From: a virus | Lineage: Duplodnaviria; Caudoviricetes | Reading direction: 5' to 3' (one strand) | Length of the DNA: 64,000 bases | IMG/VR virus record: IMGVR_UViG_3300014205_000174 | Part shown: piece by piece, positions 36,835 through 64,000 of the stretch | How the letters are laid out: each line of letters begins with the position of its first letter | Numbering within the stretch: position 1 is the stretch's first letter | The notes under the pieces: generated by a model | Databases searched by the model: none | Told to the model about the DNA's origin: nothing | The model's input: only the letters and a program-made list of their open reading frames with translations | Program-made: the position numbers and the translations under genes

Positions 36835-37023
36835 ATGCAACCAGAACTAATCGAAAAGATAAAAGACATAGACCTTAGTAAGGTAGGCAAAAAAGCAATA
36901 CTTGTCGTTTCTGGGCTGCTCTTTGGCGCGATAGGCCTTGTGCTGCTGAATAAATTCGTAGAGGATAACTTTGATTTCCGAGTGGACAGAATTTCCAACA
37001 AGCCACCAAACGATAAGAAATAA
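36835..37023 (+). CDS. small single-TM protein
   Basis: KKAILVVSGLLFGAIGLVLLNK. Confidence 0.7.
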   Translation: MQPELIEKIKDIDLSKVGKKAILVVSGLLFGAIGLVLLNKFVEDNFDFRVDRISNKPPNDKK

Positions 37024-37065
37024 AACTTAGTTTTTAATTTTATAAACAAACCAAAAACAAACCAC

Positions 37066-37686
37066 ATGTACAAGTACGAACTAAAATTACAAGAAGTGGG
37101 CATGCAGGTTACAGACCTTAGTAAGGGCATGCAGGATAAGATAAAGAAATTCCTTAAGGGGGTTGCCGCCGCTGATAAGATGAGGGAAAGGCTGAAAGGA
37201 AATATTACCCAGGCGACCAGGGAAAGTATTGAAGCGGAGTTGGCTGATATGGACATTGATGCTGGCGATATGAAGCTGGTAAAGGGCATTGAAGACGGTA
37301 TAAAAAATAAAGACAAGTACGATGCCCTTGCTGCTAATTTGCAGAAGAAAAGGCTAGAGAAAGGGATGTCTGGCTCAAAGCCGCCGGCAGCGACACCAAT
37401 ACCTATTCCGCCAGCAACAAATCCAGCACCACAACCAATACCTATTCCGCCAGCAACGAGTCCAGCACCACAACCAACGCCAGCCTCGGTTGCTCCGGCT
37501 CCCGTTGCTCAAGTACCAACCACGCCACCCGCCTCAACTCCTTCTCCTGCTCCGGCAGATAAAGGCAAGGAAGAAGAGGTAGCTAAAGATGGGAGTAGTA
37601 ATGTCAGTGGCTGGGCCTTTGCAGGAATAGTGGTATTGTCGCTACTTGGGCTTGGGGCCTGGGCAAAAAAAACGGGCAGGATATAG
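37066..37686 (+). CDS. helical protein with a Pro-rich linker and C-terminal TM anchor
   Basis: 39-nt tandem duplication at 37395-37472; GWAFAGIVVLSLLGLGAWAKK. Confidence 0.75.
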   Translation: MYKYELKLQEVGMQVTDLSKGMQDKIKKFLKGVAAADKMRERLKGNITQATRESIEAELADMDIDAGDMKLVKGIEDGIKNKDKYDALAANLQKKRLEKGMSGSKPPAATPIPIPPATNPAPQPIPIPPATSPAPQPTPASVAPAPVAQVPTTPPASTPSPAPADKGKEEEVAKDGSSNVSGWAFAGIVVLSLLGLGAWAKKTGRI

Positions 37687-37723
37687 GGCATTGTATTTTT
37701 TAAATCGTAAATTTGATTAAGCA

Positions 37724-37936
37724 ATGAGTTACTTGAAGTATAAAAAAGAAAAGCAGCAGAAAGAGAGTAAAAAACTCGCTACCGTCGGGTTTGTAGTAGG
37801 AGCTGCCTTGGCGCTCGATGATAGCGACAGTAATTACGAAGATGTTGTAGCTGGCGGTGTGGTCGGGGTTTTGGTAGTGGGACTATTCGAATACTTATTC
37901 CCGAAAGCAAGCAGTAAAATTGCGCAAATGATATAA
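37724..37936 (+). CDS. small membrane protein
   Basis: Two Gly-rich hydrophobic segments. Confidence 0.6.
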   Translation: MSYLKYKKEKQQKESKKLATVGFVVGAALALDDSDSNYEDVVAGGVVGVLVVGLFEYLFPKASSKIAQMI

Positions 37937-37938
37937 AC

Positions 37939-38526
37939 ATGGCTAGTAAATACACAGAATCTCTGATAAGAACGTTTGTAAACCAGTACGGTGTGTCTAT
38001 AGCAAGGGCTATAGCACAGACCAACTTGTTTTTTCCTGCGGTTGTAGCCCAACTATCTGTGGAAAGCGCAAATGGTACATCTGGTCTCTCTGTGCGTGCA
38101 AATAATTTCGGTGGGATTAAGGGCAACCAGGATAATGGTATACTTATGGATACCACTGAGACGGATAAGCATATTGCGTCAAGGGCCTATTTTAGGAAAT
38201 ATGCAAACTTCGATGAGTTTATAGACCATTACGTGAGTATTCTGCGAACACCAAGGTATATAAATGGGGGAGTATTTGAAGCCACTTCCCCTGAAGACCA
38301 GATTAAGGCTATGGTTAAAGCTGGATACTCTACCATGACCCCGAACGCATATTTAAAGCAAGGAGTAAAAGACAGAATAGATGCAACCAGGGATATATAT
38401 AAAATCGGAAAAATAGGCAACATATCATCCGCCTATGCTGCTCTAGGGTTCGCCCCGCAACAGGAGGCAAATCCCGGAGCTGCCGCAGTGCCGAACTTTT
38501 TGTGGGATAATATTTTGCGTTTGTAA
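37939..38526 (+). CDS. GH73 glucosaminidase / FlgJ-like peptidoglycan hydrolase
   Basis: AQLSVESANG..NNFGGIKG..FRKYAN..PRY..AGYST. Confidence 0.85.
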   Translation: MASKYTESLIRTFVNQYGVSIARAIAQTNLFFPAVVAQLSVESANGTSGLSVRANNFGGIKGNQDNGILMDTTETDKHIASRAYFRKYANFDEFIDHYVSILRTPRYINGGVFEATSPEDQIKAMVKAGYSTMTPNAYLKQGVKDRIDATRDIYKIGKIGNISSAYAALGFAPQQEANPGAAAVPNFLWDNILRL

Positions 38527-38538
38527 AACTATCATCAA

Positions 38539-38715
38539 ATGAGCGACAACAGAACGAGGAATTTGCATATATTGTTATTTTGTGTAACTTTGGCTGGTGT
38601 AGGCACTGGTATTTACACTATTTATGAGTACCAGCGCGTTAAGAAAATAAATGAAACAGTGGTTACATTGCAGGATGCGGAGCAAATCATCAGGATGAAC
38701 GCTGCTGCAAATTAA
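38539..38715 (+). CDS. small single-TM protein (58 aa, not in the ORF track)
   Basis: MSDNRTRNLHILLFCVTLAGVGTGIYTIY... Confidence 0.6.
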   Translation: MSDNRTRNLHILLFCVTLAGVGTGIYTIYEYQRVKKINETVVTLQDAEQIIRMNAAAN

Positions 38716-38760
38716 GTTTACGACATTACAAAGCTTTATTCATTTTTAATTTCATAAACC

Positions 38761-39495
38761 ATGCAGACCCGGATAATCATAAATAATATAGAAAAAAATT
38801 TCCAGGATAATTTCAGGCCCAGGGTTCTTCGTGGGCGGAAAGACGCTTTTGTAAATTCGGGAGGCGGCCTTGAGGGCGCGCCTACTGGCGGTATGATTGG
38901 TACCGGAGGCCCAACCCCGCCAGCGCCGAAGCCAAAGTACGATAAGTACGCAGCAAGGGTAATACCAAAACCCGGAATCGAAAGCCTTCCGCCTGTAATA
39001 AATGCTACGCCAACAACTGTTTTACCACCACCACCACCTACGCCACCACCAGTAGTGCATCCTGCTGCCGGTACGATACTGGAGACTTATTGTGCCGGTA
39101 CGAATAGAATGCGTGCATATGCGGATGGTCGTGGCGGAGCAACTACATCTGTATTGGAGACAAACAGCACTAGTTGCGGGTATACTCCTGCGCCACCACC
39201 ACCGCCGGATACAACGACAACTACTACAGTTGTAACCCAGCCTGCGCCTATACCGGATTACGGCAGTAGTGGGCCAGTTAGCGGTGGAAGTATAGGTGGT
39301 GGAGGCGGTGGCGGAAGTGAAGCGCCAATGTCTCCGGGTGGCGGTGCCGGTATGGGCATGCCGGAACCAGAGGCCCCTGTATTGCCGGAAAGCATTCTGA
39401 AAAAAGAAGTAATCAACTGGCCGTTAATTATAGGTGTAGTTGGTTGTTTTGGTGGAGTGTATTGGTACTTAGGCAGGAAGCAGGCAGCAGCGTAG
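38761..39495 (+). CDS. Pro-rich protein with a C-terminal TM and a small Cys-pair module
   Basis: FVNSGG motif; GTILETYC..YADGRGG..ETNSTSCGY; paralogue of 39520. Confidence 0.75.
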   Translation: MQTRIIINNIEKNFQDNFRPRVLRGRKDAFVNSGGGLEGAPTGGMIGTGGPTPPAPKPKYDKYAARVIPKPGIESLPPVINATPTTVLPPPPPTPPPVVHPAAGTILETYCAGTNRMRAYADGRGGATTSVLETNSTSCGYTPAPPPPPDTTTTTTVVTQPAPIPDYGSSGPVSGGSIGGGGGGGSEAPMSPGGGAGMGMPEPEAPVLPESILKKEVINWPLIIGVVGCFGGVYWYLGRKQAAA

Positions 39496-39519
39496 TCACC
39501 AGCAAAATCAGAAACCGAA

Positions 39520-39999
39520 ATGCGAAAAATCATAAATGACATAGACGCTAAATTTAGCAATGCCAATGGAGGTAGTGCTAAGGTGTTATACAATGGAGGT
39601 GGTGCTCAGACATTAGCTCCATTGGAGCCGTCATTTATCGGGATAGGAAATGTTACGCCATCCCAAAGACCGAAGTATGATAAGTATGCACCAAGGGATG
39701 TTGGCAATCCCAATTCAATCGAGTCTGTAGTTCCGGGTATGGGTGGCCCTCCGCCTCCGTCAGATAATCCGGTAGACAATGACATCGATACTGGCGACAA
39801 TACTGGCGACAACTATCCTGGCGGCAATAACAACCAGGGAGACCCGGAATACAACAACAACGACGTTATAACAAATAAGGATGTTAGTTCTTCGGTAGAA
39901 GAAAGCAAGGATAATAAGTCTCTGTTCATTTTTGCAGGGGTTGGCGTAGTTGGTTTATTGGCCGGCATATATTTTTACTTAAAAGGCAAAGAACAATGA
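39520..39999 (+). CDS. C-terminal TM protein
   Basis: FSNANG motif; PKYDKYA shared with 38761. Confidence 0.75.
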   Translation: MRKIINDIDAKFSNANGGSAKVLYNGGGAQTLAPLEPSFIGIGNVTPSQRPKYDKYAPRDVGNPNSIESVVPGMGGPPPPSDNPVDNDIDTGDNTGDNYPGGNNNQGDPEYNNNDVITNKDVSSSVEESKDNKSLFIFAGVGVVGLLAGIYFYLKGKEQ

Positions 40000-40469
40000 A
40001 TGAACAACAAAAGAAATTAGCGGGACAAATTCTTCTTGGGCTTACTGTAGTTGGCGGTATATACCTTTTATATCGCAACAACAGGAAGAATAAGGCAGCC
40101 GTCAGCAATACGGTTATGGATATGCCTCAGCCGCCTGTGATGCCGGTTGTGAATCCAATTAGCCAGGTAGAGAACACTACGCCTATAGATAACTTTGACG
40201 TGGTGAAAGATGTGGTGCCGCCAGTGCCAGATATCCCTATAGTGCCAGTTAATACTGTGGTGCCGCCAGTCACTACACCGGTTAAGCGCGAAGATGTGTT
40301 AATCGGTAATCTCATGAAGGCAATAAATATTCTACCAGGTGGTACTAATCTTGATAAAGCAAAAAGATTCCTTGACGCAAACGGCGTAGACATAAGTACG
40401 CTGGCGGATTCAACCGACCAGGGTATTGTTAATTTTGCAGTAGCTAATGGGTGGAACCCAGCGGCATAA
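39996..40469 (+). CDS. N-terminal TM protein
   Basis: TM followed by a basic cluster and a Pro/Val linker. Confidence 0.7.
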   Translation: MNEQQKKLAGQILLGLTVVGGIYLLYRNNRKNKAAVSNTVMDMPQPPVMPVVNPISQVENTTPIDNFDVVKDVVPPVPDIPIVPVNTVVPPVTTPVKREDVLIGNLMKAINILPGGTNLDKAKRFLDANGVDISTLADSTDQGIVNFAVANGWNPAA

Positions 40470-40480
40470 ATACAGGAACA

Positions 40481-40861
40481 ATGGATAACATACAACTAGG
40501 AAATAATCCGGCTCCAGCGTTGGAAATGCCAAGTCCGGCATTAAGCGCGCCTATGGCCCCACCCGCACCAACCCCAACACCAGCTCCGGTATTGGCCCCA
40601 ACTCCGCCAATGCCTATGCAGTCGCCTGCTATGGGAATTGGGGGTAGTGGGAAGTTTGATTGGCTGCGCGATATCAACTGGATGGAAACAATCATTTGCG
40701 GCTTAGCAGTTGGTGCGCTTAGCTATGTTATTGCCTACTACCGGTTTAAGCTGAAAGAGGATAAGCTCATTGGTGCAGATACACAGCGCCAGTTGGATAA
40801 TCTTGGGTTGAGGCTAGGAAAGACCGAGTCCTCTTTGATACAGGCCGGCATTGCTGTTTAA
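40481..40861 (+). CDS. Pro-rich single-TM protein
   Basis: Likely start at ATG 40481; central TM. Confidence 0.65.
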   Translation: MDNIQLGNNPAPALEMPSPALSAPMAPPAPTPTPAPVLAPTPPMPMQSPAMGIGGSGKFDWLRDINWMETIICGLAVGALSYVIAYYRFKLKEDKLIGADTQRQLDNLGLRLGKTESSLIQAGIAV

Positions 40862-40890
40862 ATCATTAATCACACATAGTTTATAAAAGA

Positions 40891-40917
40891 CGAAAGCCCC
40901 CAAATTGGGGGCTTTCG
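40891..40917. terminator. intrinsic terminator hairpin
   Basis: CGAAAGCCCCCAA-A-TTGGGGGCTTTCG perfect inverted repeat. Confidence 0.75.
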
Positions 40918-41071
40918 CTTACGTGGCAATAGTAAAGAAAAAAACAAACCGAAGTAAAGATAATCAAAATAATTTATTTTTAAAATCAAGGCATTGCGTT
41001 TTTATTTTTCATATTCCTTTATTATCTTTGAAAATCTTTCCAAGTTAGTTTCAAAGCAAACCAATTTAATT

Positions 41072-41515
41072 GTGGCAAATAGGCAACGCACTGACACACA
41101 TAAGCTATTGCATGAGGTTACGCGAACGGTCGAGGAGATAGGAGCAAAGGAGACTTGTGATATACTCATTGAGGCAAGAGCAAAGAATAAGGCCATTGAT
41201 TTTATGGACTTTGTTATTAAGGTGGTCTGTGAAAAATACAATGTTTCTCCCGACGATGTGATTAAAAGTCATAGTGCAGAAAACAAACGGGTTTCTGCAC
41301 TGCGCTTTATTTGTTTTTATTGCTATAATCACGGCATTAAGGGATTGAAAATTAACCAGGAAGAAATTGGTAGTAAACTGAATCGGCGTCAACCACTGAT
41401 TAATAGGTATTCTCAGGAAATGAAGGCGAAAAGGCTGGAGAAGAATACGCAACTGCAAAAGTATTTTACATACTTCGATGTTCAGATAAAGTCATACGGT
41501 AAGAAAACTAAATAA
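41072..41515 (+). CDS. DnaA C-terminal-like HTH DNA-binding protein
   Basis: VIKVVCEKYNVSPDDV..RVSALRFICFY..QEEIGSKLNR; GTG start downstream of a TATCTTTG box (41023-41030). Confidence 0.6.
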   Translation: MANRQRTDTHKLLHEVTRTVEEIGAKETCDILIEARAKNKAIDFMDFVIKVVCEKYNVSPDDVIKSHSAENKRVSALRFICFYCYNHGIKGLKINQEEIGSKLNRRQPLINRYSQEMKAKRLEKNTQLQKYFTYFDVQIKSYGKKTK

Positions 41516-41546
41516 TTAAATCGTTTTATTTAAAATCACACACATC

Positions 41547-42662
41547 ATGCGTAGAGCAAGAAACAACCAGGACGAATTTGAGAATGAAATAACAGAAGGT
41601 GGAGAAAGTAGCTCACAGGTTATAAATGCGGAATCTGTTGAGATAAAGGACGAAAAGAAAAGCGAGTCCATTGCACAAGAGCCATCTAATCCTTACATGA
41701 CTGGTGTGCTCGATGAAAAGACGTATACGCAGGGCGCTCCCATAGACCCTAATTTGGCAAATATGCCGATAGAGGAGCCTGTGTTTATTCCACCCCCTCC
41801 GCCTCCACCGGTATCGGAGCCGGCAGGGCCACCCCCTCCGCCAGTTAACCCGGCACTTAAAGACCTGAATCCCAAGGATAAAAATGTTGCTGCAAAAAGA
41901 GCCGCTGAAATGGCTTTGCAGATGTATGAATACATTCATGAGCTCGGCAATAAGGCGATAACTATCCCCGAGAGCAAATTAAATAAACTTCAGAAGCAGG
42001 CGCTGATAGATTTGGAGACGCCTATGATGTTTAATGGTCAGCAAATAACTATGAAGCAATTCATAGAAGTTTTCAACCAGCAGGCCGAAGGTACGTTTAA
42101 GGTAAGCCAGAAGTTCAAGGATGAAGTGATGCCGCTTCTTATTGAGATATTTGAGAAGAAGGGTATTGGCATGACTACTGAGCAGCAGTTAATGTTCCTT
42201 GTTGGTAAAGACATTGCTGGCAAACTTTCCCTTGCATGGGTTGCTATTCAGCAGCGTAAGGAGATGATTGAAGTAATGAAGGAGCAGACGGAAGCATTCA
42301 AGGCTCAGGCGGAACAGTATAAAGCATGGATGCATGCTCAGCAATCTACCCCGCCGCCACCACCGCCACCACCACCTGCGGCGGAGCAGCCAGTCCCAGT
42401 TCCACCACCACCGCCACCACCTACTCCTAATTTCCCTGGTTCTTACCAGGATTCACAACCTGTTGTTCATTTTAATCAGGACGATGTAATGCTCCCTGAC
42501 CCTGAAGAGCATCGTGGAGTGCCTGGGGAGTTGAATGCACAAGGGTTTGTTGAGAATATGATTAATCCCGGTAAGGCTAAAAGGAATACGGTTAAGCTGC
42601 CGGATAACTCAACTGTGCTAACTGGAAAATCAAGAGGTAAAAATAAATTAAAAGTAAAATAA
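41547..42662 (+). CDS. Pro-rich protein directly upstream of the packaging ATPase
   Basis: 371 aa, poly-Pro tracts flanking a helical core. Confidence 0.75.
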   Translation: MRRARNNQDEFENEITEGGESSSQVINAESVEIKDEKKSESIAQEPSNPYMTGVLDEKTYTQGAPIDPNLANMPIEEPVFIPPPPPPPVSEPAGPPPPPVNPALKDLNPKDKNVAAKRAAEMALQMYEYIHELGNKAITIPESKLNKLQKQALIDLETPMMFNGQQITMKQFIEVFNQQAEGTFKVSQKFKDEVMPLLIEIFEKKGIGMTTEQQLMFLVGKDIAGKLSLAWVAIQQRKEMIEVMKEQTEAFKAQAEQYKAWMHAQQSTPPPPPPPPPAAEQPVPVPPPPPPPTPNFPGSYQDSQPVVHFNQDDVMLPDPEEHRGVPGELNAQGFVENMINPGKAKRNTVKLPDNSTVLTGKSRGKNKLKVK

Positions 42663-42664
42663 TC

Positions 42665-43552
42665 ATGCCTGGTACAAGGGATTGTTTAGTTACGTTAGTG
42701 GTTGGTAAAAAAAAGGTAGGTAAAACACACACTACAATTCAGATGCTTGATGATATCGTCCGTGGCGATATTGCCAATGGCATTAAGCCAAGGAAGGCGC
42801 TGATATTTGATGTGAACAATGAGTTTTCCGACTTTAAGTTTAAGGGCCAGCAGCGAGCTATAAAAGCGTTGTACATAAGGGATATCGCAAGGTTTAGCTC
42901 CAGCAATATTATCGAGATAAGGCGAATACGGCCCTACTTTGACGATGGAAGCCGCATGTCTACTGAGGATATGTCGAAGGTGCTGGCCATCATTATGGAT
43001 AATTACCGGCGCGGGGTGCTACTCGTAGAGGATATAAATAAATATGTTACCGACTCAATCAATGGAGATTTGATAGGCAACCTCGCCACTGCTCGACATA
43101 TAGGATTAGATGTTATATGCCACTATCAGCAGATTTCTCGTGCCGGAAATCCTAAATTATTCGGTAACGCTAACTTTATTCGTTTTCATAAAACCAATGA
43201 TACGGTAGCGCGTCATGAACTGAAGTTCCAGGAGAAGACGGAGCTGTTGCAGTTGGCCGAGAATATAGTTAACTACTACTATAACGTCAAGGGGTATGAG
43301 GAAGACGAAAAGTATAAGTACTTCTTTCTTTGGGTTGATGTAGATGAATCTAAAATAAAGGCTGGCAATTTCAAAATAACGGACGAGGATATTGAGCGTA
43401 GCATTAATGAATATGTATCAGGCAATACCACCAGGCTATTAAAGCCACTCATGCAGCGTCTGGATTTAACAACAAACAAGAAAGTGTTTGCTTCAGAGTC
43501 AGAAGGTATCCGGTATATTATTAAGCAACTCAAGAGAACATACTTTGAATAA
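42665..43552 (+). CDS. A32/P9-like genome-packaging ATPase (FtsK-HerA superfamily)
   Basis: Walker A GKKKVGKT near the N-terminus; Walker B VLLVED; ARHIGLDVICHYQ signature; 295 aa. Confidence 0.8.
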   Translation: MPGTRDCLVTLVVGKKKVGKTHTTIQMLDDIVRGDIANGIKPRKALIFDVNNEFSDFKFKGQQRAIKALYIRDIARFSSSNIIEIRRIRPYFDDGSRMSTEDMSKVLAIIMDNYRRGVLLVEDINKYVTDSINGDLIGNLATARHIGLDVICHYQQISRAGNPKLFGNANFIRFHKTNDTVARHELKFQEKTELLQLAENIVNYYYNVKGYEEDEKYKYFFLWVDVDESKIKAGNFKITDEDIERSINEYVSGNTTRLLKPLMQRLDLTTNKKVFASESEGIRYIIKQLKRTYFE

Positions 43553-43571
43553 TAGTAAGCACTAAGAAACC

Positions 43572-43763
43572 ATGCAAAAAATACTCTCCGACTCTACGCT
43601 GAAAAGATACATCCGCGAAGACAGCAAACTTTCCGACCTACAAAAGACCGCACTCCAGCGCCATAACCACGAAGCACCCGAGTCGTTCGATGCTTGGTTC
43701 TACAATATTCTGGATGACGATGAGCGCGAGGACGTTCGCGAGTTCTTGAATATCAAACACTAA
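43572..43763 (+). CDS. small hypothetical protein
   Basis: 63-aa ORF after the ATPase. Confidence 0.55.
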   Translation: MQKILSDSTLKRYIREDSKLSDLQKTALQRHNHEAPESFDAWFYNILDDDEREDVREFLNIKH

Positions 43764-43847
43764 AAAAGTATTCAAATAATTTTGTTATTCTGGAAACTAT
43801 ATTTACATTTATGCTTTATATATTTTTCAACTAAAATTTTAATTACA

Positions 43848-44039
43848 ATGCAAGAGGGCACAGTTAAGTTTTTTAATGACTCCAAAGGATTTGGATTCAT
43901 TACGCCATCCACAGGTGGCAAAGATATTTTCGTTCATGTATCCGGCACAAAGGATGAAATCCGGGAGAACGACAGGGTATCCTACGAAGTAGAAAATGGT
44001 AAGAAGGGCTTAAATGCCATAAACGTAAGAGTAATCTAG
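43848..44039 (+). CDS. cspA: cold-shock protein
   Basis: MQEGTVKFFNDSKGFGFIT..DIFVHVSG (RNP1/RNP2); ATG at 43848. Confidence 0.95.
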   Translation: MQEGTVKFFNDSKGFGFITPSTGGKDIFVHVSGTKDEIRENDRVSYEVENGKKGLNAINVRVI

Positions 44040-44063
44040 CGCACACACACCACTTTCATTCAG

Positions 44064-44093
44064 AAAAAACCACGCCACCAGCGTGGTTTTTTT
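44064..44093 (+). terminator. intrinsic terminator after csp
   Basis: AAAAAACCACGC-CACCA-GCGTGGTTTTTT. Confidence 0.8.
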
Positions 44094-44409
44094 ATTTTTA
44101 AATATTCCCACAATCTTCATGTCGCTGAAATCCGCTCTACAAGCCACACACAGGCTATTCCACTTTGATAATTATTGTTAATAAAAGGTAAGTGTATTTA
44201 TAAAAAAAGTACAATATTGATAGTATTTCAATAACAGCAAATTACGTAAAAATTAGATTTGTTTACTATTGTTTGTAGATTTGTTTTCCGAAAGGCTATT
44301 TGCATAGCTGATTAAACAAAAAGCATACCAGTACTAATATTCGCTATTTGTATAGCAAAACAATAAATCATTTTTAACTCATTAATCAAACAACTTAAAA
44401 CTAACTTTT

Positions 44410-44538
44410 ATGATGGAGCAAGTTAAGAAACACCTCGGTTTAGGCATTACAGTTGTTGTTGCGGTATTGGTAACAACTAATCTGATTCAGCCAATGATTA
44501 ACAAAGCGAAAATAAGTTCTCCTTCAGTTTCCCAGTAA
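44410..44538 (+). CDS. 42-aa single-TM protein preceding the capsid candidate (not in the ORF track)
   Basis: MMEQVKKHLGLGITVVVAVLVTTNLIQPMINK. Confidence 0.6.
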   Translation: MMEQVKKHLGLGITVVVAVLVTTNLIQPMINKAKISSPSVSQ

Positions 44539-44606
44539 TTCTGGTCTGATGAGTTCAAGGCATTATTAATTGAAATCATTTTGTTTAACTCAAAAAAAAT
44601 CATAAA

Positions 44607-45353: not shown

Positions 45354-45373
45354 GCAAAATATATTTACCTTTT

Positions 45374-45421: not shown

Positions 45422-45438
45422 GTATTTAAACTTATTTT

Positions 45439-45807: not shown

Positions 45808-45814
45808 TACTCCT

Positions 45815-54698: not shown

Positions 54699-54724
54699 TT
54701 AATTAGTATTAAAAATATTTTATA

Positions 54725-55608: not shown

Positions 55609-55611
55609 ATA

Positions 55612-55959: not shown

Positions 55960-55968
55960 ATTTAACAG

Positions 55969-56730
55969 ATGAAAAAATCAATCATTTCCGATTTAGACGC
56001 ATTAAATATAACAGGGGCTAAAGATAGCCAATGGTTATATTCTCCTGGCAAAAAGGGAGTAAGGAGTGATATTGACTTTTTGAATGCAGATGGTGATGGT
56101 ACTTTCCGTTTTGATATGTACCCGAATCAGGAATCAGTAAAGGTTCACCCATTAGACATGACGCCAGGAGGCGAAGGTACTTTTCGCTTCGATTACGATA
56201 GCACCCCGGAACTTTATGACCAACATCGCGATACTGGTGGCTTTAATTTAATGGACTGGGGTAGCGAATTATTGCGTGGGAGTGACAGTAATAGCACGTC
56301 AGGTGGCGGTGGTGATTTTAATTTAATGGACTGGAGTAGCAGTTTGCTTAAGCCAGATAGTCAGCCAGGCGGATGGACTAAGCCGCCAAATGAGACAATA
56401 AATAAATTAGAGCCAGCGCCTTTAGAGAAGATGAATACCACGCCCAAGGCGCAGGGTAAAGTAGCTACATTACCTAAAACATGGATAACTGACCTGTTTA
56501 AATCAGTTGGCAATGCTGCCAGTCAGGCACTTTCGGCGGCGGCAAAAAATAGTGGTCAGTCTGCTCAAAAGCAAACACCGCAGAAGCAACAGCAAACTGC
56601 TGGTACCGCCGGTGCATCTGCGGGTGAAGCAACAAAGCCAAATACGTCGCTTATAATAGCGGTTGTGATTGGATTAGGTGTAGTAACTACCGTTGGAGTT
56701 GTGTTGTTTACTGGTTCAAAAAAGAAATAG
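55969..56730 (+). CDS. C-terminal TM protein with internal repeats
   Basis: FLNADG; GTFRFD x2; FNLMDW x2. Confidence 0.75.
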   Translation: MKKSIISDLDALNITGAKDSQWLYSPGKKGVRSDIDFLNADGDGTFRFDMYPNQESVKVHPLDMTPGGEGTFRFDYDSTPELYDQHRDTGGFNLMDWGSELLRGSDSNSTSGGGGDFNLMDWSSSLLKPDSQPGGWTKPPNETINKLEPAPLEKMNTTPKAQGKVATLPKTWITDLFKSVGNAASQALSAAAKNSGQSAQKQTPQKQQQTAGTAGASAGEATKPNTSLIIAVVIGLGVVTTVGVVLFTGSKKK

Positions 56731-56779
56731 TGAGTAACGTCATAGACGCGTAAAAAAACATTAATTTAGCTAAGCAAAA

Positions 56780-58069
56780 ATGTTAAAATCGTTCAAATAC
56801 AGGTTAGATTTAAATGAGGAACAGAAAACGTTCTTCAATAAATCATTTGGCTGCGCAAGGGTGGTGTACAACCGCTGTCTTGACCGCCGAAAGGAACTGT
56901 ATGCGGACAACAAACAGACAATAAGCGCCTACGATTTAATTAATGAAATTACGTTACTAAAAAATACAGAAACGTATTATTGGCTTTCGGAAGTTGTTGC
57001 TCAAACACTACAGTGCGCTGTAATGAATCTCGACACCGCCTATAAGCAATTCTTTAATGGTGGTTTTGGTTTTCCAAAATACAAAAGTAAGTATGCTCGT
57101 CAGAGTTGCCAGTTCCCACAAAATGTAAGAATTAATTTTGATAACAACAAGGTGTGGTTCCCGAAACTCGGCTGGACACGAACACATATCAGCCGCCAGT
57201 TTACCGGCAAGATAAAAACCACTACCGTCAGTAAAAATGCTTCCGGCTATTACTACGTGAGTATCCTTGTTGACAATTCAAAGCCATTACCCGAGAAATC
57301 ACCGGTAGCGGCAGATACGGCCATAGGTATAGATGTAGGTGTGAAAACCCTTGCTACCTTCAGCGATGGCACAAAGATGGAGAATCCCAAGTACTACGCC
57401 AAGTCGCAACAGAGACTGGCAATATTGCAAGAACGTTTAAGCCGTAAGGATAAGAACCGGTATCCAACGTCAACAACGGACAAAAGCAGTAAACGGAGAG
57501 TGAAAGCTAAAAAAGCGGTTGCGAAACAGCACCAAAAAATCGTAAATCAGCGAACCGACTACTTACATAAACAGTCCACGAGAATAATCCGTGAGAACCA
57601 AACGATTATAATCGAGGACTTGAATATAGCTGGCATGACCAGCAGGGTGAAAACAAAGAAGCAGGACGAGAATGGCGCGTATCTACCAAACGGCCAGGCT
57701 GCGAAGTCCGGACTGAACAAAGCAATACTTGACGTAGGTATAGGTCAGTTCTTTGACATGCTGGAATACAAAGCAGAATGGTACGGTAGGAACTTAATCC
57801 GTATCGGACGCTTTGAGCCCAGTAGCAAGACCTGCTCAAACTGCGGTTACGTCAATCAAGCCCTTACACTTAAAGGCAGAGAGTGGATGTGCCCTGTGTG
57901 TGGAGTAAACCACGACCGGGACATAAACGCTGCTGTCAACGTTAAGGACATGGGGCTAAAACAATACTACTCAGAAATGAGAAAGGAATTTAAATTAAAG
58001 ACAGGGGAGGGCATCCCCAGTGTGGACAGTTCGGCTATAGATGTAAAATCTGGGGCCAAAGCTGTCTAG
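56780..58069 (+). CDS. tnpB: TnpB RNA-guided nuclease (IS200/IS605 family), no TnpA
   Basis: FKYRL..FGCARVVYN; GIDVGVK, IIIEDL, DRDINAA; CSNC/CPVC. Confidence 0.93.
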   Translation: MLKSFKYRLDLNEEQKTFFNKSFGCARVVYNRCLDRRKELYADNKQTISAYDLINEITLLKNTETYYWLSEVVAQTLQCAVMNLDTAYKQFFNGGFGFPKYKSKYARQSCQFPQNVRINFDNNKVWFPKLGWTRTHISRQFTGKIKTTTVSKNASGYYYVSILVDNSKPLPEKSPVAADTAIGIDVGVKTLATFSDGTKMENPKYYAKSQQRLAILQERLSRKDKNRYPTSTTDKSSKRRVKAKKAVAKQHQKIVNQRTDYLHKQSTRIIRENQTIIIEDLNIAGMTSRVKTKKQDENGAYLPNGQAAKSGLNKAILDVGIGQFFDMLEYKAEWYGRNLIRIGRFEPSSKTCSNCGYVNQALTLKGREWMCPVCGVNHDRDINAAVNVKDMGLKQYYSEMRKEFKLKTGEGIPSVDSSAIDVKSGAKAV

Positions 58070-58142
58070 TCAGAAACAAGCGTAGGCAACTACCTTAAAG
58101 TATGACATGCCACGGCTCTGATGCGTCGCAGGCGGTATAAGA

Positions 58143-58202
58143 CTTGGCTTAGGAATACTTACTACCGTTGGTGTTGTTTTGTTTACCCGTAAAAAGAAAT
58201 AA
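58143..58202 (+). pseudogene. diverged duplicate of the 3' end of gene 55969-56730 at the TnpB guide position
   Basis: LGLGILTTVGVVLFTRKKK* versus IGLGVVTTVGVVLFTGSKKK* (56668-56730). Confidence 0.85.
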
Positions 58203-58207
58203 TTGCG

Positions 58208-58453
58208 ATGTCTCTATTGCCTAAAAACTGGTTCAATGATTTAGTGAAATCCGTTAGCGATTCGGCCTCAAAGGCAATTGAAAAAGCCGCAAACGGAAAT
58301 GAAAATCCTGAGAAGGAAGAAAAAGAAGAAACAAAAGTAGTTGTGGTAGAGAAGGAAGTAATATCAACTCCAGTAATTATTTGTACATTAGTTGGCGTTG
58401 CAATAATTGCAGGCGTAGTAGTTCACTTATTCAAGAACAAAAAAAATAATTAA
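58208..58453 (+). CDS. C-terminal TM protein
   Basis: LPKNWFNDLVKSV resembles LPKTWITDLFKSV of 55969. Confidence 0.7.
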   Translation: MSLLPKNWFNDLVKSVSDSASKAIEKAANGNENPEKEEKEETKVVVVEKEVISTPVIICTLVGVAIIAGVVVHLFKNKKNN

Positions 58454-58454
58454 A

Positions 58455-59279
58455 ATGGAGACATCAACCAAAGTAATAATAGGGTCTGTAGTTTTCCTTT
58501 CTTTAGCCGGCGTGGCGTACTTCGCGTTTGGAAGAAAGAAAAACCAGTCTTCGGATGGTACAATCTATCCGGAGCCCGGCGGCACAGGTGGCTTTAATCA
58601 GCCGCCTGGAAAAACTACACCTATTGCCGACCCGACCACGGACGCTCCTTATGTGAACACTAAGGCCAGCCCCCAAAACCAGGCTGTTATCGTAGTGAAT
58701 AAAAATGCACCGGTAGCATACGTTGATTTCGGTAATATTATGTCGGCAAATGCGCAGCAGGTAGTAGAAGAAAAACCACCTAAAAAGGAAGTCGGAATCC
58801 CTTTTGAGCAACGTAGTTTTGATTGGGCCGACAAGAATGATTTTCCGGCGGCCACATTGATGTTAATTGACGGCATTACAAGTAAGCTGTCTTGGCAGAA
58901 GACATTTATGAATGATTACGAATATAAGGTGAAGAATGAAAAAGACAAGTATATGGGTGGCTTGTTCTACAAGGTACTAGACAGGATGTTTGATGAAGGG
59001 TGGAAGCATCGCACCTGTAGCAGAAGTAGGAATGCGGGAGATTTTTTAAATAGAACAAGTACGCAAATAAAAGCAATACTAAATTTACCAGAGTCGGATA
59101 TCCCAACAAGAAATCTTGTCTGCGGGCAGCCTACCATAGATTTCTTACAGGCATATGCGAACTGTAAGGATTGGGAGGCCATTGATACTGCTAACAGAGA
59201 CCCGTATGCCCCACAACATGCGGTATCGTTGGCAATGCGGTTTGTAGCGCAATACAAAAGAATGATGGGGTTTAGTTAG
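58455..59279 (+). CDS. N-terminal TM protein
   Basis: METSTKVIIG..FGRKK. Confidence 0.7.
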   Translation: METSTKVIIGSVVFLSLAGVAYFAFGRKKNQSSDGTIYPEPGGTGGFNQPPGKTTPIADPTTDAPYVNTKASPQNQAVIVVNKNAPVAYVDFGNIMSANAQQVVEEKPPKKEVGIPFEQRSFDWADKNDFPAATLMLIDGITSKLSWQKTFMNDYEYKVKNEKDKYMGGLFYKVLDRMFDEGWKHRTCSRSRNAGDFLNRTSTQIKAILNLPESDIPTRNLVCGQPTIDFLQAYANCKDWEAIDTANRDPYAPQHAVSLAMRFVAQYKRMMGFS

Positions 59280-59338
59280 TACTGTATTGCATTTTAAAAA
59301 CTGTAAAATACTTTTTATATATTTAAATAAACATCGCA

Positions 59339-59632
59339 ATGGAAAAAAGAACGAAAATCATAATCGGAGTTGTTAGTACGCTATTGGTATCAATAGTTGT
59401 GTACGCTATTGTCAAAGCGCAATCTGGCTCAGGCGCAGTGACGTCATCCGTACCGGAATTTGATGCGGATACGCAAATAGACACAGGTGCGATAGACACT
59501 AGCACGATAGTGAATACCAATGCGCCTATACAGAAGATAAACCCGTATGCACCTACGCCAGCGTCCGAGAACCCACCACCAATACCTGGAGGTATAGGGT
59601 ACTATAAAAATAAGCCACGCATGGGAGCATAA
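59339..59632 (+). CDS. N-terminal TM protein
   Basis: MEKRTKIIIGVV. Confidence 0.65.
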   Translation: MEKRTKIIIGVVSTLLVSIVVYAIVKAQSGSGAVTSSVPEFDADTQIDTGAIDTSTIVNTNAPIQKINPYAPTPASENPPPIPGGIGYYKNKPRMGA

Positions 59633-59645
59633 AACATACTTCAAC

Positions 59646-60287
59646 ATGAGCAAACATATAATAGGAGATAGTGACGTAGCTAATAGGGCAATCATTGGCG
59701 GTGCCGATGACCAGTGGGCTAATAGCTTTGGTGATGTTCTGCTCAATGTACTGAGCGGCGGCGTTACCGGGGCTATAACGGTTCATAATAATGGTGGAGA
59801 TGCCGACAGTGTGATGCGGCATGTTCTTACCGGAGGCATGTCATTTACGGCAGATGAAACCGGTATAAGTAAAGGGTTCAAAACTAAAACACAAAGAGAA
59901 TCGGATGCGTGGAATCAAAAAAACCCATACACGCTTTTCCCTCTTCCAGCTAACCCTACATGCCGGAACATGACCGACTTAAAAAACAGGCTCATTTTAG
60001 AACAGGCTTCAGCGCAATATACGTATACCGGGAAAATTATAAAGTATATACAGGAGATAGATAAAGCGCTATCTGATAACAATTGCAAAAAAGCACTTGA
60101 GGATGAGACTGCGGCCAACCAGCAGAATCGTTTATTAAGTGCTGCACAAGCGGCGCTGGGTGTAAACACCAAGTCGTCCGCCTCATCTGGTTCCGGGATG
60201 GGGTTGTCGCCGCTGTCTATTGCATTAATAGTGGGTGGCGTTATGATGACCGCAGTCCTGATAGTTGCATTAAAGCCTGCGAGCTAA
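59646..60287 (+). CDS. C-terminal TM protein
   Basis: Ser/Gly linker followed by a TM. Confidence 0.7.
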   Translation: MSKHIIGDSDVANRAIIGGADDQWANSFGDVLLNVLSGGVTGAITVHNNGGDADSVMRHVLTGGMSFTADETGISKGFKTKTQRESDAWNQKNPYTLFPLPANPTCRNMTDLKNRLILEQASAQYTYTGKIIKYIQEIDKALSDNNCKKALEDETAANQQNRLLSAAQAALGVNTKSSASSGSGMGLSPLSIALIVGGVMMTAVLIVALKPAS

Positions 60288-60323
60288 AACAATATTTATT
60301 TCATTTTTAAAATAATAAGCAAA

Positions 60324-60719
60324 ATGGATGCAAAAAGAATCGGAGTATCGGCAGTAGGTGGTGTGGTAGGATATTGGGCCGGAGGTAGAATTGCTAAAAT
60401 GATGCCGGGAAATAAATACGGCAAGTATTTTGGGCCGGTATTAGGTGTGGCCGCCACGGTAGTTTTATACAATGCTTACGGTGAGGGTATAAAGATTCAG
60501 GCCGGTAATGGTTTCAGCAATGCATCTGGAACTAATCGTGCGCAATATTCGCAACGAGACAGTAATGGTAACGTTGTCATGGCAGCGGCTCCCGGTAAAG
60601 CTGCATTAACCAGTGCTGCGGTTAATAAAACACGGCGGCAACCAGCAAACCCTGGACTCTCTTTTAAAGAGCGCTACGATAAATTCATGAAACAATATTT
60701 TGGCATCGGCAGAGCATAA
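60324..60719 (+). CDS. glycine-zipper membrane protein, paralogue of 60754
   Basis: FSNASG motif. Confidence 0.7.
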   Translation: MDAKRIGVSAVGGVVGYWAGGRIAKMMPGNKYGKYFGPVLGVAATVVLYNAYGEGIKIQAGNGFSNASGTNRAQYSQRDSNGNVVMAAAPGKAALTSAAVNKTRRQPANPGLSFKERYDKFMKQYFGIGRA

Positions 60720-60753
60720 TATACCAATATCAAAAATCCTTAAACAATAGCAG

Positions 60754-61134
60754 ATGGACGGTAAAAAAATAGGTGCGACAATAGTAGGCGGGGTGATAGG
60801 CTCGGTGGTCGGATTCGGCATCGCCAGTTTACTTGCAGACAATAAATATGCTAAATTAATGGGGCCTGCATTCGGGCTTACTGTGGCATTGGCTGTTTAT
60901 ACAAGGTACAAGCCAAGTGTAGCTGGTAGCGACACTGATGCTGGATATAGCAATGCTATAGGTAAAGGAGGATGGGCGACAGGCGGCAGTTATCTTCCAT
61001 CGTTCCCTGCCAGCTCCAGCGGCTCTTCTGCTAAAACAGAGCGCAAGAAATTATGGCCAAAGTACAGCAAGGTGCAAAAATCAGATAGTAAGGAGCGCAA
61101 GGATATAAGCCTGGATACTAGAATATTATATTAA
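60754..61134 (+). CDS. glycine-zipper membrane protein, paralogue of 60324
   Basis: YSNAIG motif. Confidence 0.7.
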   Translation: MDGKKIGATIVGGVIGSVVGFGIASLLADNKYAKLMGPAFGLTVALAVYTRYKPSVAGSDTDAGYSNAIGKGGWATGGSYLPSFPASSSGSSAKTERKKLWPKYSKVQKSDSKERKDISLDTRILY

Positions 61135-61140
61135 AATTAT

Positions 61141-61148
61141 TACCTTTG
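61141..61148 (+). promoter_or_regulatory. Bacteroidota-type -7 promoter box
   Basis: TACCTTTG (TAnnTTTG) 16 nt upstream of the ATG at 61165. Confidence 0.55.
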
Positions 61149-61164
61149 TCGGAAACAAACCGGC

Positions 61165-61602
61165 ATGACAAAGACAATAATTACCGACGAGGAGAGAATA
61201 AAATCAATTATAAGGGAGACATTCGAGGGGGACGTAAACCAAAGACAATATTTTATCTGGAAAACCCACGAAGACTCTATAAAAGATACGTTCGAGAAAA
61301 ATAAAGAAGCGCGTGATTTGTATAGCTCTCATTTTTATGAGTTGACAGCGGAAGATGGCAGATTACTTGGTTTTATAAACATCATCCCATCGCTTAATAT
61401 GCTGTTCAGCTTTGGGCTAAAGCAGGAGGAGCGTACAGAAGAGAATAAGCGTTATTTTATACAGGCTATAGAAGAGGCAATACCAAATGGAGACATAGCT
61501 TGTAGTCTTTATAGTAAAAATACAAGGGGCATACGGTTCCTGGAGAACAATGGGTTTAGCAGGCAGGAGAATACAATAACTTTAGTTAAAAAACGAGAAT
61601 AG
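61165..61602 (+). CDS. GNAT-family acetyltransferase-like protein
   Basis: LLGFINI..SLYSKNTRGIRFLENNGF. Confidence 0.7.
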   Translation: MTKTIITDEERIKSIIRETFEGDVNQRQYFIWKTHEDSIKDTFEKNKEARDLYSSHFYELTAEDGRLLGFINIIPSLNMLFSFGLKQEERTEENKRYFIQAIEEAIPNGDIACSLYSKNTRGIRFLENNGFSRQENTITLVKKRE

Positions 61603-61604
61603 AA

Positions 61605-61970
61605 ATGGCTGTATTGTTAATAGTTGGTGTTGTTGGTGCTGTTGTTGGTCTTACCGGTACCGCAGTTGGTGCCGGGCAGAAGAGTAAGGCCATGAAGCTG
61701 AGCAAGCAAATGGCTATAACGCAGAACCAGCAGAATGCATTACTAAGTGACAGGCAGAACAATACGCAGATAGAAATAGGTATTAACCATGACGTAGGTT
61801 CTGTCATTAGCTCTGTGATTAAAACAAGGCTTGATAACGAGGCGACCATAACGGCAGCGGCCCGGGCCGCAACAATGAGCAAGCAGGGAGACCTGCTTAT
61901 TATGGTTGGCGCTGGAATCACAGTACTCTCTTTGGCGGTTTTGGTTTTCAGGCGAAAAAAGCAAACATAA
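61605..61970 (+). CDS. membrane protein
   Basis: N- and C-terminal hydrophobic helices, RRKK tail. Confidence 0.7.
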   Translation: MAVLLIVGVVGAVVGLTGTAVGAGQKSKAMKLSKQMAITQNQQNALLSDRQNNTQIEIGINHDVGSVISSVIKTRLDNEATITAAARAATMSKQGDLLIMVGAGITVLSLAVLVFRRKKQT

Positions 61971-61999
61971 TTTATTCTTAAGCGCATAAAACACATATT

Positions 62000-62359
62000 A
62001 TGAACAGAGAGATATCGTACCAAAACTGGAATAACTCAAACACGGCATTTGTCAATGCTTCCGGTGATGATGAAAAGACCGGTGCCGGCCAATTTATCAG
62101 CGGACTAGGAAACTGGTTCGGGGATAACTCGGATAATATTTTCAAGCTGGCCGAAACCAAGATTAAGGCAGATACGCAAAAGGCCATAGCCAATGGCAGT
62201 AACATCGATACTACCGGCAATGTAGGTAATGTCGGTGCGTCAACATATGTGCCGGAGCCACCCAGCAACACTGGGTTTTATATTATGGCTACTGTTGGTG
62301 TCCTGGTTGTTGTCGGCGGCATTACTTATTTTGCAATGAAGAAAAAAACCGGGGCGTAA
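62000..62359 (+). CDS. C-terminal TM protein
   Basis: FVNASG motif; TM followed by KKK. Confidence 0.7.
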   Translation: MNREISYQNWNNSNTAFVNASGDDEKTGAGQFISGLGNWFGDNSDNIFKLAETKIKADTQKAIANGSNIDTTGNVGNVGASTYVPEPPSNTGFYIMATVGVLVVVGGITYFAMKKKTGA

Positions 62360-62365
62360 TAAAAC

Positions 62366-62746
62366 ATGGACTATCTCAATGACGTAGGCACCCAACCAAG
62401 TTTCTGGTCATCCAATGGTTCATGGATATCCCAGGGGGTTTCTGCTGTCGGAGGTATAGCGGCAGGTTATCTTTCAGCAAAAGAGCAGGCCAAAACCAAC
62501 AGAGACATAGCGTCAATGGATGTGCGGGGTAAGACCGAGGTGGCTAAATCGCAACTTGACGCGGAGCGGTATATACAGGAGCACCATGATTTGACGGCCA
62601 TAGAGATTGAAAAGATAAGGGCTATGGCCGCGATAAACGCTCCGCAAGCGCCAGCTAAAAGCAACGTAGTGATGATTGGTATTTTTGGTTTTTTAATAGT
62701 AGCAACGGTGGGTATTTTTTATATTGGAAGTATGCAACCTAAATAA
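62366..62746 (+). CDS. C-terminal TM protein, paralogue of 55612
   Basis: YLNDVG; GGIAAGYLSA. Confidence 0.7.
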   Translation: MDYLNDVGTQPSFWSSNGSWISQGVSAVGGIAAGYLSAKEQAKTNRDIASMDVRGKTEVAKSQLDAERYIQEHHDLTAIEIEKIRAMAAINAPQAPAKSNVVMIGIFGFLIVATVGIFYIGSMQPK

Positions 62747-62771
62747 TAATTTTCTCACTTAAATCGCAGTC

Positions 62772-62936
62772 ATGAAAAAGAATAAAATACTTTTTATTTC
62801 ATCGTTTATTTTGGTGTTGTTTTTTATTGCAGACCTGATATATCCCAGTAAAGCAAACAAATCGAATATCAACACCAATACCGACATGAATACGCAGGAA
62901 TACACAAGGCCAATTCAGTCAATAACAAGCAGATAA
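62772..62936 (+). CDS. 54-aa single-TM protein (not in the ORF track)
   Basis: MKKNKILFISSFILVLFFIADLIYP. Confidence 0.5.
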   Translation: MKKNKILFISSFILVLFFIADLIYPSKANKSNINTNTDMNTQEYTRPIQSITSR

Positions 62937-62960
62937 GGTTCATGGTTTAAACCAAGTAAA

Positions 62961-63443
62961 TTGAAAAGAGTTTTTATTTTATTATTGCTTGCAGGGGCCA
63001 TTGGTGGCGGGTTATGGTATTATAAAAGGGAGACCGACCTGTTGAAGAAATTCAAGGTAGACATTGCAGGGTATAAGGTGACGGATTATACCATTGCCAA
63101 CATGAACCTGGTAGTTACGTTTATGATTACATCCTACAATTCCATAGAGGGAGAGATTACGGGGTCTAATCTGGATATCTATATAAATGGTAGTTATGTA
63201 GGCAATGCATTTAATAATGAATCGCAGATAATACCAGCTCACGGATATAATTACGTGAACGTAAATCTAAAGTTGAATAATGCGCAGTTGGTGCAGAGTG
63301 CATTGAATATAATTGCCGCAGATAAAAACAAGGCAATCAGTATCCGCACTGTAGGTACTGTAAAAGTGAAGACCGGATTTATTGCAATGAATATTCCTGT
63401 TGACGACACGCAGACCACATCGTTAACAAAATTGTTGAAATAG
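62961..63443 (+). CDS. LEA_2/WHy-like beta-sandwich membrane protein
   Basis: N-terminal TM; LDIYINGSYVG..QIIPAHG..V.L. Confidence 0.65.
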   Translation: MKRVFILLLLAGAIGGGLWYYKRETDLLKKFKVDIAGYKVTDYTIANMNLVVTFMITSYNSIEGEITGSNLDIYINGSYVGNAFNNESQIIPAHGYNYVNVNLKLNNAQLVQSALNIIAADKNKAISIRTVGTVKVKTGFIAMNIPVDDTQTTSLTKLLK

Positions 63444-63493
63444 TTTTGAGAATAGACATTAAATTATTAAATTTACCAAACACACATACTTAA

Positions 63494-63805
63494 ATGTTCG
63501 GAGGTAATTACGGTTTCTTTGGAGGGGGTGTTGGTGGGTCGTCGGCTGCTATCGTAGATATACAGCAGTATACGGTTAGCCAGTCGGTGGGTGTCCCGCA
63601 GCCGGGAGCGACCAGCTTTACTTTTCCTACTGGCCTGGTGGGGACGAACGTGACTGTTTTTGTGAATGGATATGGGTACCTTGTACCGACTGTTCAGTTC
63701 TCATATACTACAAGCGCAAGTGGCGTAACAGGGATAACATTACTCACCGGATTGCAATTTCAGGAGGGGGAATTTTGGACATTTACTGGATTTGTGGAGC
63801 CGTAG
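63494..63805 (+). CDS. beta-rich hypothetical protein, possibly structural
   Basis: Gly-rich N-terminus; VTVFVNG. Confidence 0.65.
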   Translation: MFGGNYGFFGGGVGGSSAAIVDIQQYTVSQSVGVPQPGATSFTFPTGLVGTNVTVFVNGYGYLVPTVQFSYTTSASGVTGITLLTGLQFQEGEFWTFTGFVEP

Positions 63806-63823
63806 TTTTTTAAAAGTTATTTT

Positions 63824-64000
63824 ATGAAGAGACTTTTTTTAATTTGTTTATTATTTTTGAGTATTAAGGCGTTAGGCCAGGCTCAGCCGTATTATACGAT
63901 ATACAACTATGGCAATGCATTTCAGCGATTAGCGGCATATACGTCGTTACTGATGCCATTGCGGGATACTACGCTACTTACGGACAGTACCAGGGCTGGC
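63824..64000 (+). CDS. signal-peptide protein, 3'-truncated by the window edge
   Basis: MKRLFLICLLFLSIKALG|Q: signal peptide with Gln at +1. Confidence 0.6.
   Translation, partial: MKRLFLICLLFLSIKALGQAQPYYTIYNYGNAFQRLAAYTSLLMPLRDTTLLTDSTRAG

Follow-up and report, generated by a model that had tools for sequence, protein, structure and literature searches.

The window analysed here, a 64,000-nucleotide stretch of the virus record IMGVR_UViG_3300014205_000174, probably contains the particle-assembly genes of a double-stranded DNA (dsDNA) jumbo virus of Bacteroidota, at least 211 kb in size, whose particle would be tailless and membrane-containing and which would belong to an undescribed single-jelly-roll lineage. 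The first-pass annotation of positions 36,835–64,000 had proposed a very large tailless, membrane-containing virus of Bacteroidota, and we rate this proposal as supported by the structure of a putative packaging ATPase (gene 42665; genes are named here by their first position) and by relatives that carry no recognisable hallmark genes of tailed phages. The gene set it listed (the ATPase, a capsid candidate, a GH73 hydrolase, a LEA-like protein and about 50 small genes) was recovered in full and in place on the plus strand, where all features described below lie, within a module that comprises 53 complete genes and, at 63824, a truncated one. Its size estimate of at least 64 kb correctly called the genome large but set the bound too low, as the contig carrying the window measures 211,455 bp. 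Directly established are the gene set, the folds, the gene linkage, the membrane anchors, an HExxH protease, a shared motif and the hallmark-free relatives.

The packaging function is assigned to a predicted FtsK/HerA-superfamily (A32/P9/B204-like) ATPase of 295 amino acids (aa) at 42665..43552. Searching Foldseek with its AlphaFold2 model (predicted local distance difference test, pLDDT, 88) returned best matches that were all B204 of STIV or STIV2 (E-value, E, 4e-8), and in a VIA structural comparison STIV2 B204 ranked first (Z-score, Z, 16.3; root-mean-square deviation 2.9; 188 residues aligned), ahead of DndH (Z 14.7), HerA (14.5), VirB4 (13.7), TrwB (12.0) and Zot (10.1). The RH.G..Q motif aligns with that of B204, and the Walker A, RH.G and Q motifs are invariant across 43 homologs. 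With six reference tailless viruses as targets, the family profile likewise matched B204 best, if weakly (E 0.002); Pfam and PDB sequence searches with the protein were uninformative. A hydrophobicity test detected no hydrophobic segment or membrane anchor in this 295-aa protein; a membrane anchor or large extra domains mark conjugative ATPases and inoviral Zot/pI. Phylogeny contributed less: the tree resolved the family but not its root or outside relatives, its deep nodes being unreliable with reference branches of 3–8 changes per column and with VirB4 and TrwB left out of its rows. The packaging role is thus argued from structure, size and gene context and not from phylogeny, and the structural ranking favours a packaging ATPase closest to the tailless-virus type (STIV2 B204) over the conjugative or Zot assignment that the first-pass annotation had named as the alternative.

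The same comparison bears on a reading in which the element has no capsid of its own and is instead a large plasmid-like or integrative element, spread by membrane vesicles or conjugation, whose ATPase acts in DNA transfer or partition. HerA, VirB4 and TrwB are indeed among the next structural matches of the ATPase (Z 12–14.5), polyvalent proteins and SNO-type helicases are also found in conjugative elements (PMC5512222), and small relatives are integrated at tRNA genes. We nevertheless find this reading quite improbable: the ATPase is only 295 aa long, anchor-free and matches B204 first; traits of a virus are seen in the lysins, fibres and small holin-like genes and in the highly expressed jelly-roll gene; the 74 loci of the module come from IMG/VR; and no relaxase or type IV secretion system family turned up in scans of large proteins.

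For a virus with its own shell, the candidate major capsid protein is the 248-aa product of 44607..45353, assigned from its model, codon bias and ATPase linkage. The model holds one confidently modelled beta-sandwich (residues 58–204, ~147 residues), with an N-terminal helix and flexible arm on one side and C-terminal helices on the other; it is a single domain and not a double jelly roll, and a few family members hold two tandem copies. Structural matches comprised many jelly rolls at Z 5–7, viral proteins as well as carbohydrate-binding modules and none of them specific, including weak fold matches to the PR772 vertex protein, the FLiP capsid protein and a phiCjT23 chain (Z 5.4–5.7). Foldseek against PDB and BFVD likewise gave nothing specific, the flexible ends matching collagen-type proteins. 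No Halopanivirales capsid chain appeared among the listed structural matches, and a broad family profile had no match in the six-frame translations of SSIP-1, P23-77, SH1, STIV2, PRD1 and PM2, both results being compatible with remote kinship. Matches this weak and unspecific therefore show the fold class and not the lineage.

Three independent signs point to 44607 as the candidate major capsid protein, namely codon bias, ATPase linkage and core presence. Its optimal-codon fraction of 0.74, against about 0.35 typically, is the highest codon bias in the window, and its orthologs in seven whole relatives rank first in four, second in one and third in two. The ATPase lies 0.3–3.1 kb upstream of the jelly-roll gene on the same strand in all 61 testable viral loci, and in the reverse test a jelly-roll gene followed the ATPase in 39 of 42 ATPase loci. 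Homologs belong to the core in every genome examined, and the family comprises 1226 clusters at 50% identity. A second, shorter jelly-roll paralog (~150 aa), found in 7/7 whole relatives at a non-adjacent position 10–38 kb further downstream and not within the window, is a candidate minor capsid or vertex protein. Large relatives carry extra jelly-roll paralogs, four of them in a 272-kb contig (paralog coordinates: L077:6812-8538, 17760-18458 and 20472; L078:8307-8852; G011 genes at 6650, 14648 and 17225), and in a 102-kb genome a tandem form of 397 aa may represent a fusion from single to double jelly roll.

The module also holds some 38 small membrane proteins, most of them single-span, arranged as an array (36835..62936). 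The hydrophobicity test flagged 40 of its genes, of which 44607 itself (a beta-strand) and the acetyltransferase-like 61165 were rejected as false, so that about 38 of 53 carry a predicted membrane anchor, nearly always as a single span with basic flanks close to the N- or C-terminus. As a control that was not size-matched, 2 of the 16 plus-strand open reading frames of at least 100 aa in the left part of the window were flagged; in seven whole relatives, membrane-flagged genes make up 52–67% of the small module genes versus 10–27% of small genes elsewhere. Furthermore, a short motif (F/Y-x-N/S/G-A/F-x-G) occurs in both the capsid arm and several membrane proteins; its 12 copies compare with an expectation of 1.3 from shuffles, 500 of which gave at most 6.

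An array of about 38 membrane proteins, far above the number in PRD1, PM2 or SH1, could also be read as that of a particle made from the same genes but outwardly enveloped or pleomorphic, in which the jelly roll would be a transient scaffold or inner matrix and the membrane proteins an envelope with a fusion apparatus. In poxviruses, D13 is a scaffold of this sort. The signal-peptide-like start of the fibre gene in the 211-kb virus and a 174-kb relative, and the variable number of jelly-roll paralogs, would fit such a particle as well; the fibre genes of smaller relatives, however, have no such leader, and the jelly-roll gene is the most codon-biased, as expected for a main shell protein. Described prokaryotic viruses that combine an A32/P9-type ATPase with a jelly roll are moreover icosahedral with an internal membrane (PMC5332951), and we consider the enveloped or pleomorphic form unlikely.

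In keeping with the first-pass annotation, which had recognised no terminase, portal, HK97 capsid or tail gene, no match to terminase, portal, HK97 or sheath/tube was obtained among the window proteins scanned, apart from one weak tape-measure match on 49229 (E 2e-6), which we rejected as a low-complexity hit of a 266-aa protein to a profile of 1853 positions. Thirty relative records of 50–102 kb, 15 of them rated at least 90% complete, were searched whole: four Pfam terminase models and one Pfam model each for portal and HK97 capsid gave nothing over cut-off, and positive controls worked. A Terminase_6C match in relative G012 was discarded as sub-threshold (13 bits, with a stop inside). Similarly, when 47 large unexplained proteins, drawn from the window and five relatives that end in inverted terminal repeats (ITRs), were scanned with Pfam and PHROG, no tailed-phage head or packaging gene appeared among the Pfam matches or the best 25 of 32 PHROG families listed; what matched were fibres, RecT, nucleases and methyltransferases. 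The absence of hallmarks accordingly stands for the window and for 30 whole relatives, though not for the rest of the 211-kb contig.

Of the 211,455-bp contig, we read the 64-kb window and 9.7 kb upstream of it, the latter via its Logan copy. The other 65% might hold the terminase, portal and HK97 genes of a tailed jumbo phage or of a chimera, the jelly-roll module then being an inserted smaller virus or a mis-join; all jumbo phages of a 2021 survey carry terminase (PMC7824862), and the weak match on 49229 and the fibre matches could be counted on that side. Several observations make this the least probable of the readings considered. The window, together with the gene upstream of it, is arranged as are the whole genomes of the terminase-free relatives (glycosyltransferase, polyproteins, MoxR, module), and GC content and skew are uniform along the window. 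A second assembly of the contig, from the Joint Genome Institute (JGI) and possibly made from the same reads, has 211,437 bp, and a third (Logan, SRR6484325) reproduces two contig stretches at 100%. Two further very large contigs of the same clade also carry the same module. The end of the window apparently coincides with the contig end and falls inside a fibre-like gene, and 211 kb is therefore either a minimum or the length of a permuted circle.

These relatives place the tailless virus in a lineage of wide size range. IMG/VR contains 74 loci of the module on contigs of up to 102 kb, and five relative genomes end in inverted repeats, four of 123–127 bp and one of 653 bp. Their shared core order runs from a glycosyltransferase through Gly-Gly-jointed polyvalent proteins, MoxR, a helix-turn-helix (HTH) protein, 41547, the ATPase, the jelly roll, 45439 and 51173 to a zincin and a LEA_2 protein. 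A 174-kb JGI contig (Ga0620987_00712) is syntenic with the window gene for gene and, beyond the point at which the 211-kb contig ends, continues with fibre, lysin and holin-like genes; among the ten of its proteins scanned, none matched sheath, tube or baseplate. The same module in the same order was found on the 272-kb contig (JAWVHA010000112.1), and the ATPases of the window and of these two contigs form one clade (99/99). At the small end, Flavobacteriales genomes (Fluviicola, Parvicellaceae, Crocinitomicaceae and one labelled Glaciecola with a Fluviicola-like 16S) contain elements of ~20–25 kb, located at tRNA genes and next to recombinase-like genes; these proviruses encode the jelly roll, the zincin, a lysin and the membrane array, and the majority encode the ATPase too. 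The lineage thus spans ~20–25-kb proviruses, free genomes of 68–102 kb and a clade with contigs of 174, 211 and 272 kb, so that gigantism would have arisen on the jelly-roll/A32 core.

Some features of individual relatives deserve mention. The genome labelled Glaciecola amylolytica (L121, CP034120), whose 16S is nearly identical to that of Fluviicola, is probably mislabelled; its provirus (~20–25 kb) adjoins three tRNA genes. In two Flavobacteriales genomes (L114, L117, G031 contig 2, L219-L221) the ATPase block is inverted and apart from the capsid block, and a second G031 element, with no ATPase block beside it, may be defective. A more distant ATPase homolog, of 190 aa, is encoded in Fibrella musci (L124); its surroundings include a Pro-rich neighbour, lysins and small membrane genes, but nothing that the 44607 profile matched. 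In an 84-kb relative, the fibre position is taken by a 5338-aa adhesin-like protein (L086:961-16977). For the ITR-ended relatives (G005, G026, G001, G013, G018; L079-L099), the conserved or large proteins included no recognised DNA polymerase or helicase; present are RecT, an exonuclease and two genes resembling replication initiators.

The host phylum is likely Bacteroidota, as judged from sequence signals, and the earlier host assignment is supported by proviruses, translation and promoter signals and a cold-shock gene. The provirus ATPases, however, are only 33–36% identical to 42665. A Shine-Dalgarno-like motif precedes only 3 of 62 genes, A peaks lie at −13, −12 and −3, and the coding strand between genes is enriched in TAnnTTTG (10/43, p 0.003). 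Rare Shine-Dalgarno motifs with such A peaks, and TAnnTTTG, are Bacteroidota traits. The accessory cold-shock protein (43848..44039), Bacteroidota-like by its sequence matches, is closest to Spirosoma (71%), with four of its five best matches in Bacteroidota. The peptidoglycan hydrolase, TnpB, the layout in operons and the proviruses in bacteria led us to reject a eukaryotic host.

Several points weigh against a tailless jumbo virus with a jelly-roll shell. About 138 kb of the 211-kb contig were not read, and what was seen of the 174-kb contig amounts to only about 41 kb and of the 272-kb contig to about 28 kb. The four ITRs of 123–127 bp have the length of an assembly k-mer, so that the completeness of those records is uncertain. 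Fold class, codon bias and gene order are the grounds for the capsid assignment; the best structural match of 44607 is a carbohydrate-binding module (Z 6.8–6.9), all scores lying in the unspecific range, and the window has one jelly-roll gene versus two adjacent ones in Halopanivirales. In the ATPase family the Walker B motif reads E-D and not D-E (residues 118–123 of 42665), an unusual form that is invariant in the 43 homologs, and an inovirus Zot-like row falls inside the family on a very long branch, which is a long-branch effect in a tree whose deep part is not resolved. Finally, ESM Atlas labels the clusters of the relatives' zincins Uroviricota; this is most likely an automatic label, suggesting that the family has been auto-filed as tailed phage.

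Taking these points into account, we propose how the particle of the tailless virus could be built. Copies of the highly expressed single jelly-roll protein 44607 would, by analogy with PRD1 and SH1, be arranged as an icosahedral lattice around a membrane vesicle taken from the host and packed with the ~38 single-span proteins, shell and membrane assembling together; the short motif common to the capsid arm and membrane proteins could serve for docking or be cleaved. Into the preformed empty shell, the genome would then be pumped by the B204/P9-like ATPase together with its conserved neighbour 41547. The zincin would mature the particle, fibres would bind the host, the GH73 enzyme would open the wall at entry or exit, and the Gly-Gly-jointed polyvalent proteins would be delivered as cargo. 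Taken further, the broader picture is one we think likely, with somewhat less assurance: a jumbo (>200 kb) virus with a jelly-roll shell, a membrane and an A32/FtsK-type pump, forming a bacterial parallel to eukaryotic giant viruses within an undescribed high-rank lineage that extends from ~20–25-kb proviruses to 272 kb, and would need a particle of ~150 nm as scaled by cube root from PRD1 and SH1 diameters.

Among known systems, Halopanivirales (Singelaviria: SH1, HCIV-1, SNJ1 and the Thermus viruses P23-77 and IN93) share several features with this virus: dsDNA, a capsid protein with one jelly roll (a candidate here), an FtsK/HerA-type (A32/P9) ATPase encoded close to the capsid gene, membrane proteins of small size, lytic enzymes and proviruses at tRNA genes (PMC5332951, PMC12714852). 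Their genomes, however, measure 17.0 kb (P23-77) and 30.9 kb (SH1) versus 211 kb here; they have two adjacent capsid genes and far fewer membrane proteins, and zincin, MoxR and polyvalent cargo are absent there. For 44607 against the VP16/VP17 or VP4/VP7 lineage, all structural scores stay under Z 7, in the unspecific range. STIV and STIV2 (Turriviridae) provide, in B204, the solved structure closest to 42665 and share the RH.G..Q motif, but differ in a double jelly-roll capsid of 345 aa, a 16.6-kb genome and an archaeal host. SSIP-1 is tailless and membrane-containing, with a host in Bacteroidetes in the broad sense and two capsid protein types; it is one fifth of the size (43,788 bp), its host is hypersaline, and no sequence-level family kinship to it was seen. 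The 211-kb virus would work like Halopanivirales and SSIP-1, with membership in Halopanivirales not established.

PRD1 (Tectiviridae), PM2 (Corticoviridae), FLiP and phiCjT23 resemble it in the internal-membrane tailless build, here deduced from genes, and PRD1 and PM2 also in the P9-type ATPase, but all have double jelly-roll capsids; the PM2 and PRD1 genomes span 10–15 kb, and FLiP and phiCjT23 are single-stranded DNA viruses. Tailed jumbo phages (Caudoviricetes above 180–200 kb) and polyvalent-protein phages share the size, polyvalent ART/TopoIB/CCA proteins, MoxR, TnpB insertions and accessory genes, yet they all carry terminase, portal and HK97 (PMC7824862), none of which was found in the window or the 30 relatives.

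In their survey, Iyer et al. (2021, PMC7824862) stated that every jumbo phage has a terminase and that, unlike the eukaryotic nucleocytoplasmic large DNA viruses (NCLDVs), prokaryotic viruses with an internal membrane and an A32/FtsK/HerA ATPase included no known member of large size. The first-pass annotation had put known viruses with this ATPase type at about 10–35 kb, a range whose upper end is exceeded by SSIP-1 (43.8 kb). With SSIP-1 as the largest described bacterial virus of this build that we found, the 211-kb virus would be about five times larger. If our reading is correct, it and its 174- and 272-kb relatives would remove the size asymmetry between prokaryotic viruses and NCLDVs, a single jelly-roll shell with an A32-type pump would scale about tenfold within one family, and jumbo size would be reached without the tailed-phage terminase. 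The family is large and seems to have been auto-labelled as tailed phage; neither the ATPase nor the capsid candidate had a tblastn match in 50,697 GenBank phage records, and in the literature, subscription papers not covered, we found no description of this lineage, which is probably a new one of high rank. New here are the size past the jumbo threshold, the two further very large relatives and the proviruses in cultured strains, which, in the case of Fluviicola (F. chungangensis MAH-3 and strain THG-3.7, CP034120), make the particle directly testable.

The remaining module genes include several of the shared core. A protein with Pro-rich ends (41547..42662), a candidate packaging-vertex or scaffold partner, is the immediate upstream neighbour of the ATPase in 7/7 whole relatives as well as in the proviruses. 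It is preceded by a DnaA-C-like HTH protein (41081..41515, start possibly 40994; NCBIfam DnaA C-terminal stretch, E 2e-6; 7/7 relatives). A 42-aa membrane protein (44410..44538) directly precedes the capsid gene and is kept in the 174-kb relative, and a similar small transmembrane gene stands in the same place in the 272-kb relative. The capsid gene is followed by a C-anchored transmembrane protein (45439..45807), and further along are a small protein with a weakly hydrophobic C-terminus (51173..51478) and an N-anchored LEA_2 protein (62961..63443; PF03168), all three in 7/7 relatives. The core zincin metallopeptidase (51853..52650) has HExxH at 188, as do 11/11 homologs checked, proviruses included; it is 44–52% identical to those of whole relatives, its ESM Atlas neighbours carry peptidase families, and it is a candidate maturation protease. 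The GH73 peptidoglycan hydrolase (37939..38526) matches an endolysin/GH73 PHROG (E 2e-19), with PF01832 on syntenic homologs. A small beta-rich protein (63494..63805), 43% identical to a homolog in the same place of the 174-kb relative, precedes the start of the fibre/spike-like gene cut by the contig end (63824..64000), which is 58% identical over 45 aa to a 447-aa gene of the 174-kb relative that matches PHROG fibre repeats. Both jumbo genes begin with a signal-peptide-like stretch (the second at L240:10344-11687); those of the smaller relatives do not.

Outside the module coordinates, the upstream block (345..35224; Pfam and motif counts) contains Gly-Gly-jointed polyvalent proteins at 345, 4835, 25892 and 28409, an SNO-type helicase at 11944 and, at 17200, a MoxR AAA+ protein with a homing-endonuclease insert. 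MoxR and the polyprotein modules hold the same position in 7/7 relatives, and the block likely encodes virion cargo and chaperones. Just upstream of the window are the core glycosyltransferase and an acyl-carrier-protein-like gene (PF00550, L230:4983-5234). Passengers are also present: an IS605 TnpB insertion (56780..58069; Pfam, duplicated flank 56669/58144) and a divergent TnpB-like insertion (47281..48894), the latter recognised by motif reading alone with no family match and absent from the syntenic 174-kb relative. These two and the cold-shock gene 43848 are insertions or accessory genes and not virion genes. With a third at 35295-36635, the window holds three TnpB-type insertions, beside which lie duplicated remnants of neighbour genes (36658/36886, 35108/36720 and 56669/58144).

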